DNA from: Escherichia coli
Lineage (GTDB): Bacteria; Pseudomonadota; Gammaproteobacteria; Enterobacterales; Enterobacteriaceae
Strand: one strand, 5' to 3'
DNA length: 64,000 bases
Assembly: GCF_044324875.1 (NCBI RefSeq)
Contig: NZ_CP172185.1
Made by a program: the position numbers and the translations under genes. The notes beneath the pieces are model-generated. The model was given only the letters and a program-made list of their open reading frames with translations, made no database searches and was not told where the DNA came from. Below are positions 11,472 to 13,570 of this stretch, one piece after another. Position 1 is the stretch's first letter; each line of letters starts with the position of its first letter.

Positions 11472-11862
11472 TTTCCTCTTAGTCTATATTTGAGATGGTG
11501 AGTGAACGAGTGCGTTTTGCTGCCATCTCTGTCCCCCAAAAAATAATCAGTATGAATTGATTGGAGAGCACGACTCCGCTATTTGACCTTAAGAAAGTCG
11601 GCAAGTAATAGTCATAAGTGAGTCTCTTCACTGGCAGACACCTTAGAGATTTACCATCAACTCCCATTCTCAAACAAACATTAATTATTATCAACACATT
11701 CACATTAATTATAAATTATCTCAGACCTTCCTGATAAAAAGATATTAAAGTGAAACATTTTGTTTTTCACATTTTAGTTCATCCCTTTTAGGCGTAAATA
11801 AAGGTAAAAAATAACAATACTATTTTTCTTTCACAAAAGAATTAACAAAAGGTTTTTCAAGG

Positions 11863-12996
11863 ATGAGTGATATTATTTACCTGAACATAACCGGAGAACA
11901 ACAAGGATGTATTTCCTCTCGTTGTGGAACGAGCGCATCAATAGGTAATCGCTGGCAGATTGGCCATGAAGATGAAATCTTCGCGTTCTCGCTCTCTAAT
12001 AGTATTACGAATACAGGCAAAGGGTCACAATTGCATGGCCTTAGTTTCTGTAAATTGATTGACAAAAGCTCCCCGTTACTTATTAACGCTATTAACAATA
12101 ACGAGCAGTTGTTCATGGAGTTTGACTTCTATCGGATCAATAGATTTGGTCGATGGGAGAAATATTACAACATTCAACTTCGCGGCGCGCTCTTATCAGC
12201 AATCAATCACCTGTTTACTGAGAACAATCTGGATACAGAAACCATCACTGTCAGTTATGAATATATACTCTCCAGGCATCTGATTGCTAATACTGAATTT
12301 AGTTATTTGGCATTTCCCGATAACTACAACCGTCTGTTTATACCACGGCCAAAAACTAAAGATGATAATGGCCTCAAAACACTCAATAGTAAAGCGGTTG
12401 GCAGACTGCTTGCTGCTGGCGGCATATACAATGGGAATATCGAAGGATTCAGGGAAACAGCAAACAAGTTGGGAGGAGATGCACCTGCTGGTTACGATCA
12501 AGTTATGGATAACAAAGGGTTACTCATCGCTGGTGCTTCAATAGTTGCTGGAGTTGTTCTGGGAAGAATGAGATTCCCTGATTTGGAATCACTTGAGCAT
12601 TTCGGAGCCAGAGGAGCAGTATCAGGAAGACCATTTAATCCCGACCTTGCCGGTGGTCCAATTGAAAACCTGACGATAGATGGCGTAACAATCAACAGGG
12701 AAGGTATCGCTATTGTTGAAAAGCATATCTCCAGATTTGATCATGATCCAGCTAATGATGTAATGATTTCAAGGCTAAAGAAAATAGCAAATAAAGAATT
12801 GCTTCCTGAAAAATACGATCTGAACTACTATACTCATGAATGTCGCGAGTATCAGCGTTATTGTAATTTAGGATGGGAAACAGGTGAACCGAAAGGTTTA
12901 GATGGATATGAATTATGGAATAATGTACATACTGCAACTCTAGAAGACTTTAAAATTAAAGATACTGACTTATTTCATCCGGATGCAAAAAAATGA
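11863..12996 (+). CDS. Hcp (T6SS tube protein) fused to a C-terminal extension of unknown function; candidate Hcp-ET type VI effector
   Basis: Residues ~1-160 (MSDIIYLNITGEQQGCISSRCGTSASIGNRWQIGHEDEIFAFSL...LHGLSFCKLIDKSSPLLINAINNNEQLFMEFDFYRIN...EKYYNIQLRGALLSAI) align by eye with enterobacterial Hcp (Y-I-x-I-x-G-x-Q-G, S-I-G-N-x-x-Q-x-GHEDEI, DKSSPLL, FxFYR...E-Y-Y). Residues ~165-377 form an extra domain containing a hydrophobic stretch (LLIAGASIVAGVVLG). Visibly AT-rich; absent from the K-12 ysgA-metE interval as I recall it. Confidence 0.7.
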   Translation: MSDIIYLNITGEQQGCISSRCGTSASIGNRWQIGHEDEIFAFSLSNSITNTGKGSQLHGLSFCKLIDKSSPLLINAINNNEQLFMEFDFYRINRFGRWEKYYNIQLRGALLSAINHLFTENNLDTETITVSYEYILSRHLIANTEFSYLAFPDNYNRLFIPRPKTKDDNGLKTLNSKAVGRLLAAGGIYNGNIEGFRETANKLGGDAPAGYDQVMDNKGLLIAGASIVAGVVLGRMRFPDLESLEHFGARGAVSGRPFNPDLAGGPIENLTIDGVTINREGIAIVEKHISRFDHDPANDVMISRLKKIANKELLPEKYDLNYYTHECREYQRYCNLGWETGEPKGLDGYELWNNVHTATLEDFKIKDTDLFHPDAKK

Positions 12997-13250
12997 CGAT
13001 TACGATAGTTGAATTTAACGTGCTGAAAGTTATGGCTGAGAAAGATATTGACTGGAGCTGGATGGTGCTGGATCGTACTTTAGCTATACGAAATATTCCA
13101 GGATTTGGCAACGTAGCGAATATCGTAACAAAGCTGGTTAATCATGGGTTGGTTGATATCGTAAATGGTGAGGGCAACTCTAGACCACGCTACAGAGTTT
13201 CTCAATATGGATTGAATCTTATCAAAGAACAACAAGACAACCTCTTCTGA
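12993..13250 (+). CDS. Small protein (85 aa), candidate cognate immunity protein or small winged-helix-like protein
   Basis: ATG overlaps the TGA stop of the Hcp fusion (ATGA), implying translational coupling. No signal peptide. Paralogous to the next ORF. Confidence 0.5.
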   Translation: MTITIVEFNVLKVMAEKDIDWSWMVLDRTLAIRNIPGFGNVANIVTKLVNHGLVDIVNGEGNSRPRYRVSQYGLNLIKEQQDNLF

Positions 13251-13309
13251 TCCAGCCATTACAGGAGCATGATTTACATTGTGATCTTTCAATAAGATAC
13301 TCATCAATT

Positions 13310-13570
13310 TTGGTACAGAATATCGTGATCACTAAAAATGAACTTAACGTGCTGAACGTTATGACTGAGAAAGATATAAACTGGAACTGGATGAATCTCG
13401 ATCGCACACTATCCATAAGGCAAATTCCAGGATTCGGGAATGTTGTTAACATTGTTAACAAATTAGCTAACGAAGGTTTGGTTATTATTGAGGATAGCGG
13501 GAATAAGTCTATGCCTCACTACCACGTTAGTGAAAAGGGATACAATCTCGTGCAACGTGAGAATAAATAA
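13310..13570 (+). CDS. Small protein (86 aa), tandem paralog of the preceding ORF (second immunity candidate)
   Basis: Roughly half the residues match the upstream 85-aa ORF (NVLKVM-EKDI-W-WM-LDRTL-IR-IPGFGNV-NIV-KL-N-GLV). Start codon uncertain: the track start appears to be non-ATG. Confidence 0.45.
   Translation: MVQNIVITKNELNVLNVMTEKDINWNWMNLDRTLSIRQIPGFGNVVNIVNKLANEGLVIIEDSGNKSMPHYHVSEKGYNLVQRENK

Follow-up and report, generated by a model that had tools for sequence, protein, structure and literature searches.

A type VI secretion system (T6SS) tube protein with a C-terminal extension, followed on the same strand by two small paralogous genes, raises the question of whether the small proteins protect the cell from the extension or regulate the gene that encodes it. 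Such a locus occurs in the 64,000-nucleotide stretch of Escherichia coli DNA analysed here (RefSeq assembly GCF_044324875.1, contig NZ_CP172185.1; this whole stretch is called the window). Three genes lie on one strand in an island between ysgA and metE: a 377-residue Hcp fusion and two small genes, here called I1 and I2. In RefSeq they are labelled tssD (WP_001521777.1) and two hypothetical proteins. All functional claims made below rest on comparative genomics and predicted structures, and these point with high probability to a horizontally acquired polymorphic-toxin cassette, in which I1 gives cognate immunity to the Hcp-fused toxin and I2 is a legacy immunity protein for a second toxin allele, allele B.

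Both small open reading frames (ORFs) lie where an initial annotation of the window had placed them, directly behind the Hcp fusion, and their products are 59% identical across 80 residues (BLASTP E 3e-32), in agreement with its description of two tandem paralogous genes encoding ~85 residues. The ATG of I1 does overlap the TGA of the Hcp fusion, as ATGA, and the translational coupling that had been proposed for both genes holds for I1. It does not extend to I2, whose start is not ATG, lies 59–74 nt past the I1 stop and lacks an obvious Shine–Dalgarno sequence; a mechanical ORF call gives an alternative TTG start at 13310 and a product of 86 residues. The conserved core reported for the two paralogues is correct apart from the segment NVLKVM, which is found in I1 only and reads NVLNVM in I2.

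Strong evidence on function comes from the gene neighbourhoods of the C-terminal extension, referred to below as the toxin domain. A scan for this domain with one genome per species yielded 80 loci, 75 of which have a downstream ORF, and these loci span Enterobacterales, Pseudomonas, Burkholderiales, Cyanobacteria, Planctomycetes, Chloroflexi, Myxococcota and Bacteroidota. Of the 75, 52 have an I1-family gene immediately behind the toxin domain, often overlapping its stop codon, and hhalign aligns the enterobacterial family with the cyanobacterial and β-proteobacterial partners at 99% probability (E 7e-18). As a control, 8009 ORF segments were searched with an iterated profile, since found to have drifted, and 83 of the 86 matches lie directly 3′ of the toxin domain. 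A higher count, with an I1 homologue at 81 of 82 loci, had come from an I1 hidden Markov model iterated six times in a database of 134 sequences; it was rejected when hhalign showed that the model had drifted into a second family.

The linkage is to the toxin and not to its carrier. The toxin–partner pair is found behind Hcp, behind DUF8093, behind an unnamed N-terminal domain and in proteins of ~1465 residues, and it occurs free of any carrier in cyanobacteria. When the toxin is exchanged the partner changes with it: DUF8093 with Colicin_D is followed by Colicin_immun, the unnamed N-terminal carrier with the same linker and another toxin by DUF6966, and a Citrobacter koseri Hcp fusion that has this Hcp and linker and another toxin by an unrelated 84-residue gene, after which comes an orphan gene 78% identical to I1. 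Toxin and partner distances are also closely correlated among 40 unique pairs (r = 0.91, with none of 2000 permutations as high), the partner diverging faster than the toxin (0.65 compared with 0.44). The small genes had been put forward initially as immunity candidates, and this proposal is supported by their adjacency to the toxin across phyla and carriers, including same-strand overlap with its stop codon, by the change of partner with the toxin, by co-divergence, and by the orphan copies described below.

A predicted structure of I1 was obtained with AlphaFold from an alignment of 72 sequences (predicted local distance difference test score 88.5). It has the topology H1–strand–H2–H3–hairpin–H4, and its best Foldseek matches in the PDB are RosR, PadR and MarR, with template modelling (TM) scores of ~0.6–0.78 when normalised to the query and 0.4–0.6 when normalised to the target. 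The winged-helix-like character first guessed from the sequence is therefore confirmed by the model. MarR proteins are ~140 residues long and have dimerisation helices flanking the winged helix. The model of the 85-residue I1 and its low target-normalised TM-scores indicate that it is a bare winged helix with one C-terminal helix, lacking these dimerisation helices.

Searches of I1 and I2 against Pfam, NCBIfam, PADLOC, PHROGs and PDB sequences gave nothing significant. The MarR and PadR family models are not matched by I1, for which the nearest results are EarA in Pfam (E 0.21), none in NCBIfam and a MarR entry in the PDB (E 0.25). A database search found 170 homologues of 83–90 residues, all from Enterobacterales, and many of these are named 'MarR family transcriptional regulator' by NCBI. 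The family appears to be small, since a profile search of 1.84 billion cluster representatives matched just 62 clusters. One further protein, P0262 (851 residues, secreted-looking, with ~15 near-identical repeats of ~50 residues), has 15 stretches that match the I1 profile at E 2e-9, which is probably a compositional or repeat artefact, and it was set aside.

The origin of I2 is indicated by other E. coli strains. At the same ysgA–metE site in another strain, an Hcp fusion carrying toxin allele B is followed by a single immunity gene, which overlaps the toxin stop through an ATGATGA-coupled start and whose product is 88% identical to I2. At the DNA level, the allele of the window (allele A) and allele B (strain L013) are near-identical until roughly residue 52 of the toxin domain and then diverge through the end of the toxin. 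Allele A next has I1 and a spacer as extra sequence, and its match to allele B resumes near codon 8 of the immunity gene. This alignment and the 88% identity suggest that I2 is the old immunity gene, kept when a new module of toxin end and immunity gene displaced the old one, and it is best read as a legacy or orphan immunity gene matching toxin allele B. Retention after displacement of a module is the usual history of orphan immunity genes. The initial view of I2 as a tandem diverged duplicate is thus right as to paralogy, but the gene is better seen as legacy immunity standing beside the cognate gene as a result of allele replacement.

These sequences are common in the species. At least 80% of the island region is found in 841 of 5426 complete E. 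coli genomes; I1 is present in 729 of the 5426 and an I2-type gene in 848, from which we estimate that ~119 genomes have allele B only. Uropathogenic E. coli (UPEC) 536 is among the matches to I2. In other E. coli the small genes have stayed intact at loci whose Hcp fusion is interrupted by an internal stop, broken up by insertion sequence IS3 or affected by an IS1-associated loss (L100–L102). In one strain an IS1-associated deletion has taken the effector and the 5′ part of I1, and I2 survives. The annotation of UTI89 holds just a 229-residue C-terminal fragment of the effector.

Comparison of the two alleles also suggests where specificity resides. I1 and I2 are identical at 26 of 34 positions in H2–turn–H3, at 9 of 20 in the wing and at 3 of 10 in the last helix, H4. 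On the toxin side, alleles A and B share 18 of the 19 residues of the helix that bears the invariant H-E-x-R-E-x-x-R motif, compared with 19 of 33 in residues 53–85 and 21 of 39 in residues 105–143. The determinants of specificity are probably located in the β-hairpin wing and last helix of the immunity protein, where I1 and I2 differ most, and in residues ~53–85 and ~105–143 of the toxin, where alleles A and B differ. A conserved hotspot combined with variable specificity is characteristic of colicin DNase–immunity pairs, and the regional pattern seen here resembles it.

Table 1. Features of the ysgA–metE island, in window coordinates.
Feature	Position	Strand	Basis or remark
AT-rich upstream region (~33% GC), ysgA to Hcp fusion	11472..11862	+	composition profile
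Hcp–toxin fusion, 377 aa	11863..12996	+	RefSeq WP_001521777.1, annotated tssD
Hcp (TssD) tube domain, residues 1–147	11863..12303	+	Pfam T6SS_HCP E 4.8e-14; NCBIfam TIGR03344
Conserved linker, residues 174–236 (LNSKAVGRLLAAGG...GLLIAGASIVAGVVLGR)	12382..12570	+	partial-coverage matches in other effectors
Toxin domain, residues ~241–377 and stop codon	12583..12996	+	all-α, no family name
I1, 85 aa, probable cognate immunity (allele A)	12993..13250	+	ATG overlaps toxin stop as ATGA
Spacer, 74 bp, absent from allele B (L013)	13251..13324	+	DNA alignment
I2, 81 aa, probable legacy immunity	13325..13570	+	RefSeq WP_001445370.1, GTG start

The N-terminal part of the effector is readily assigned, with NCBIfam TIGR03344 scoring 124.9 bits (cutoff 58.9). 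The toxin domain, in contrast to it, has no significant match in Pfam, NCBIfam, PADLOC, PHROGs or PDB sequences, and its fold is without a solved relative. Nine residues are invariant, H48, R64, D79, H85, E86, R88, E89, R92 and H116 in the numbering of a 137-residue construct, and this pattern suggests an enzyme. Foldseek comparison with AFDB50 finds the domain as the C-terminal part of numerous proteins annotated as S-type pyocins, pyocin/cloacin translocation-domain proteins or colicin transporters, with pyocin-type matches in Pseudomonas, Serratia, Salmonella and Pectobacterium; it is also present in PAAR, RHS and DUF8093 proteins, and proteins of E. coli UTI89 and avian pathogenic E. coli (APEC) O1 match it at 98% identity. 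The extension of the Hcp fusion is, then, a domain that pyocins, Rhs and PAAR proteins carry at their killing end. In a Pseudomonas fluorescens protein (L067) it occupies residues 440–569, directly after Pyocin_S at 302–432. Pyocin_S is reported to be an inner-membrane translocation domain linked to cytoplasm-acting nucleases (Atanaskovic et al., PMC9040868). We infer a cytoplasmic site of action for the toxin, with nucleic acid as a possible target. The domain is acidic on average, which is unusual for a nuclease.

Between Hcp and toxin lies a linker of ~63 residues that contains the hydrophobic stretch GLLIAGASIVAGVVLG. It occurs behind three N-terminal carriers, namely Hcp, DUF8093 (PF26362) and the unnamed N-terminal domain, and matches confined to it (~31% of the query, ~80% identity) are found in proteins whose C-terminal toxin domain is Colicin_D, DUF6883 or yet another. 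The same linker is present in the C. koseri Hcp fusion, whose toxin is different and presumably Tox-REase-5-like. By analogy with the Pyocin_S/IMT domain, the linker may be a cytoplasm-entry or connector module.

Taken together, these features suggest how the cassette would operate. The Hcp tube protein would carry the all-α toxin domain through the conserved linker, and the ATGA overlap would keep synthesis of I1 in step with that of the toxin. Direct one-to-one binding of I1 would neutralise the toxin domain in the producer and in sister cells. At some point the 3′ part of the toxin gene and I1 would have replaced the older allele, leaving the old immunity gene, I2, downstream without its coupled ATG. 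If still expressed, I2 would protect against neighbours armed with the older allele.

The loci that share the toxin, the linker or the partner vary considerably in organisation. In Lonsdalea, Pantoea, Enterobacter and Cronobacter, linker, toxin and immunity gene are preceded by the unnamed N-terminal domain, which has ~140 residues, begins MLHHYQAKSL and has no Pfam match (L002 4958–6004; L005 4957–5604); it may serve in secretion or loading and have gone unrecognised so far. Phytobacter has a split toxin gene and an intact immunity gene, adjoining an Ntox44 module and a P4-like integrase region. C. koseri has two adjacent Hcp-effector modules with mixed immunity arrays (L092 1–3300): module one is accompanied by an 85-residue gene, Imm35 and an I2-like orphan, and module two by an 84-residue helical gene and an I1-like orphan. 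This species thus appears to stockpile immunity genes against toxin alleles that are not encoded at these two modules. In cyanobacteria (L030–L049) the toxin domain is a stand-alone protein of ~136 residues followed by the winged-helix partner, and in Microcoleus vaginatus (L033 3992–4884) the partner forms a fusion with a HicB-like antitoxin domain (PF15919, E 6e-12), 3′ of a 504-residue gene. The cyanobacterial pair looks like a toxin–antitoxin or defence module, and not like a secreted weapon.

Several observations weigh against the immunity reading. The winged helix is a classic DNA-binding fold, in line with the regulator name that NCBI gives to many homologues, and the I1 family may still bind DNA or RNA, since an R-x-Y-R motif is kept in the wing of its enterobacterial members. 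Correlation of toxin and partner distances is also to be expected from linkage alone. I2 may be poorly expressed, given its non-ATG start, the lack of a clear ribosome-binding site and the weakness of the nearest promoter-like match. Moreover, 21 loci, mainly in Pseudomonas and in other pyocin-type proteins, carry a different small partner of 85–90 residues with the pattern LDR...KGPNW.EP.F (L060–L085, for example L067 4456–4728), the genera being Pseudomonas, Pectobacterium, Pantoea, Kosakonia and Rosenbergiella. Homology of this second family to I1 is unsupported by hhalign (2.6% and 6% probability), and it could be either a strongly diverged winged helix or a solution of unrelated origin.

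The label in the public annotation makes the small proteins MarR-like transcription factors, for the effector or for other genes, with no part in immunity; small regulators were also the second option of the initial annotation. Such a role would accord with the winged-helix fold, with the names of the homologues and with the weak profile hints of EarA and MarR. However, a regulator of the Hcp fusion would track carrier and promoter, and what I1 tracks is the toxin domain; where Hcp is fused to another toxin the coupled gene is a different one, no regulator model of Pfam or NCBIfam is matched, and copies are kept as orphans after effector loss. In addition, a cell that encodes the toxin with no other candidate immunity gene would kill itself. 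We consider pure regulation very improbable, and strongly favour direct immunity on this comparative evidence. A dual role, in which the small proteins neutralise the toxin and also auto-repress the cassette through a DNA-binding winged helix, is somewhat easier to defend. Many type II antitoxins bind both toxin and DNA, the fold modelled for I1 is the canonical DNA-binding winged helix, and basic residues are present in the wing of enterobacterial members. The cyanobacterial pair, toxin first and with its partner sometimes fused to HicB, resembles a toxin–antitoxin module, and for this reason the dual role is kept as a minority reading. It is nevertheless unlikely. The promoters are wholly different among carriers (Hcp, DUF8093 and proteins of Rhs size), so that a conserved operator is not to be expected, and a search of 11472–11862, upstream of the Hcp fusion, gave weak AT-rich low-complexity palindromes only and no convincing operator. 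The flanking dimerisation helices of MarR are absent from I1, and the basic residues of helix 3 (the recognition helix) and the wing are not conserved across the family, where conservation is confined to core residues and net charge is ~0. The last survey covered first-downstream partners pooled with the iterated I1 profile, a profile later discounted for drift.

A separate question is whether I1 alone matters, I2 being a decaying relic that is neither expressed nor functional. The loss of the ATGATGA-coupled start of allele B, leaving a GTG or TTG start at a distance from I1 and no clear ribosome-binding site, would fit such decay. On the other hand, the ORF is present in all 848 matching genomes and is an intact coding sequence in every record inspected, the single comparison made within allele A shows three synonymous changes and one non-synonymous change, and a weak sigma-70-like match, by consensus only, lies just upstream in the spacer (13273–13301). 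I2 has also survived deletions in which the toxin and a portion of I1 were lost, and orphan I1-like and I2-like genes are kept in Citrobacter. On balance we regard loss of I2 function as improbable, though less so than the dual role, and retain I2 as a legacy immunity gene. The immunity reading could also be carried further. The toxin would then form a sixth, structurally new class of cytoplasm-acting killing domains, and its partner would derive from a DNA-binding antitoxin and still use its nucleic-acid-binding face; this we hold to be doubtful. The same proposal has the domain common to S-type pyocins, T6SS Hcp, PAAR and Rhs effectors and cyanobacterial toxin–antitoxin-like modules, and has the partner either occlude the substrate site as a competitor or mimic of nucleic acid or double as an autorepressor. 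As a joint package these elements are likewise speculative.

The general plan of the cassette is familiar. Hcp-ET effectors comprise Hcp and a C-terminal toxin, lie outside the main T6SS cluster and are followed by one or more ETI immunity genes, with tandem immunity copies at Hcp-ET3-4 in UTI89 (Ma et al. 2017, Virulence 8:1189, as summarised in PMC6730261). The upstream gene of the island has this architecture, with an N-terminal Hcp and a C-terminal extension that is presumably a toxin, and the putative immunity genes follow in tandem. Unlike the Hcp-ET effectors, its toxin lies outside the types given in that summary description (HNH DNase, DUF2235 lipase, pyocin S3, colicin DNase), and I1 and I2 are winged-helix proteins that match two toxin alleles and are not redundant duplicates. 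An orphan Hcp fusion of C. koseri, T6EC4, has a toxin domain with a Tox-REase-5-like fold, is toxic in the E. coli cytoplasm and is rescued by the downstream gene of the T6EC4/T6IC4 pair (Geller et al. 2024, PMC11148199). The 366-residue protein of the C. koseri locus described above is presumably T6EC4, judging from the species and from a C-terminal extension of 227 residues. If this identification is right, T6EC4 shares Hcp and linker with the island effector, and its locus also has orphan I1-like and I2-like genes. I1 and its toxin were considered as the T6EC4/T6IC4 pair itself and rejected, only Hcp and linker being common; the toxin differs and the partner is a non-homologous 84-residue protein.

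Winged-helix immunity proteins have been described in the family Imm-NMB0513/DUF596 (PDB 2O5H), which has two conserved tryptophans (Zhang et al. 2012, PMC3482391). I1 is likewise a small cytoplasmic winged-helix protein. The early suggestion of immunity proteins of an unusual fold is hence correct in respect of the winged helix, but this fold had already been recruited for immunity in Imm-NMB0513. Membership of I1 in that family is unsupported, as there is no DUF596 match in Pfam and 2O5H is absent from the PDB profile searches and from the top 50 Foldseek matches. The partners of Imm-NMB0513 differ from the all-α toxin of the island, Ntox20 being mostly β and Ntox7 having a BECR fold. Given this precedent, I1 and its toxin are a new, unnamed toxin–immunity family of a kind already well known, noteworthy for a misleading 'MarR regulator' label, a two-allele immunity history and a toxin fold that has no solved relative.

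Bacteriocins offer a further parallel. Like colicin E9–Im9, colicin D–ImmD and the S-type pyocins, relatives of the island toxin have a C-terminal cytotoxic domain after Pyocin_S and a small putative immunity gene abutting or overlapping the stop, and like the nuclease bacteriocins the family has diversified toxin alleles with matching immunity genes. Five cytotoxic classes of nuclease bacteriocin are used by Sharp et al. 2017 (PMC5536347), the HNH, pyocin S3 DNase, E3 rRNase, D tRNase and E5 tRNase classes, and the island toxin fits none of them. Carocin S2, tried as a relative of the toxin, is colicin D-like and was rejected. In the order of the two genes and in the overlapping partner of helix-turn-helix type, the cyanobacterial pair is like the toxin-first type II modules HigBA, HicAB and MqsRA; unlike these, the island toxin is attached to a secretion-system carrier and is hence presumably an interbacterial weapon. 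A literature search by accession and topic found no account of the toxin or of the immunity family, with Ma et al. 2017 covered through the summary in PMC6730261.

The island itself is 2.3 kb long, and its composition (33–45% GC, compared with 52–58% in the flanks) stands out from the E. coli chromosome around it, where its neighbours are rmuC, udp and ysgA at one end and metE and metR at the other. The promoter of the Hcp fusion is presumably located within the AT-rich upstream region, in which the promoter-like matches are consensus matches only. A 74-residue ORF runs on the minus strand of this region (11479–11703), and a related, longer ORF of 88 residues is found at the same position in the allele-B strain L013 (1974–2240). 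Other E. coli genomes have copies of IS1 or IS3 between ysgA and tssD.

About one in seven complete E. coli genomes has the cassette or its immunity genes. Recognition of the small proteins as probable immunity proteins corrects the annotation 'MarR family transcriptional regulator' that is now spreading through the databases, and it defines an uncharacterised killing domain used by several weapon systems (T6SS, pyocins and Rhs). The pair is compact, with a 137-residue toxin and an 85-residue immunity protein in two natural specificity alleles, and could serve as a model for a winged helix turned protein inhibitor. The history of the two alleles further predicts a hierarchy in competition, in which strains with allele A would resist both alleles and strains with allele B would be sensitive to A.

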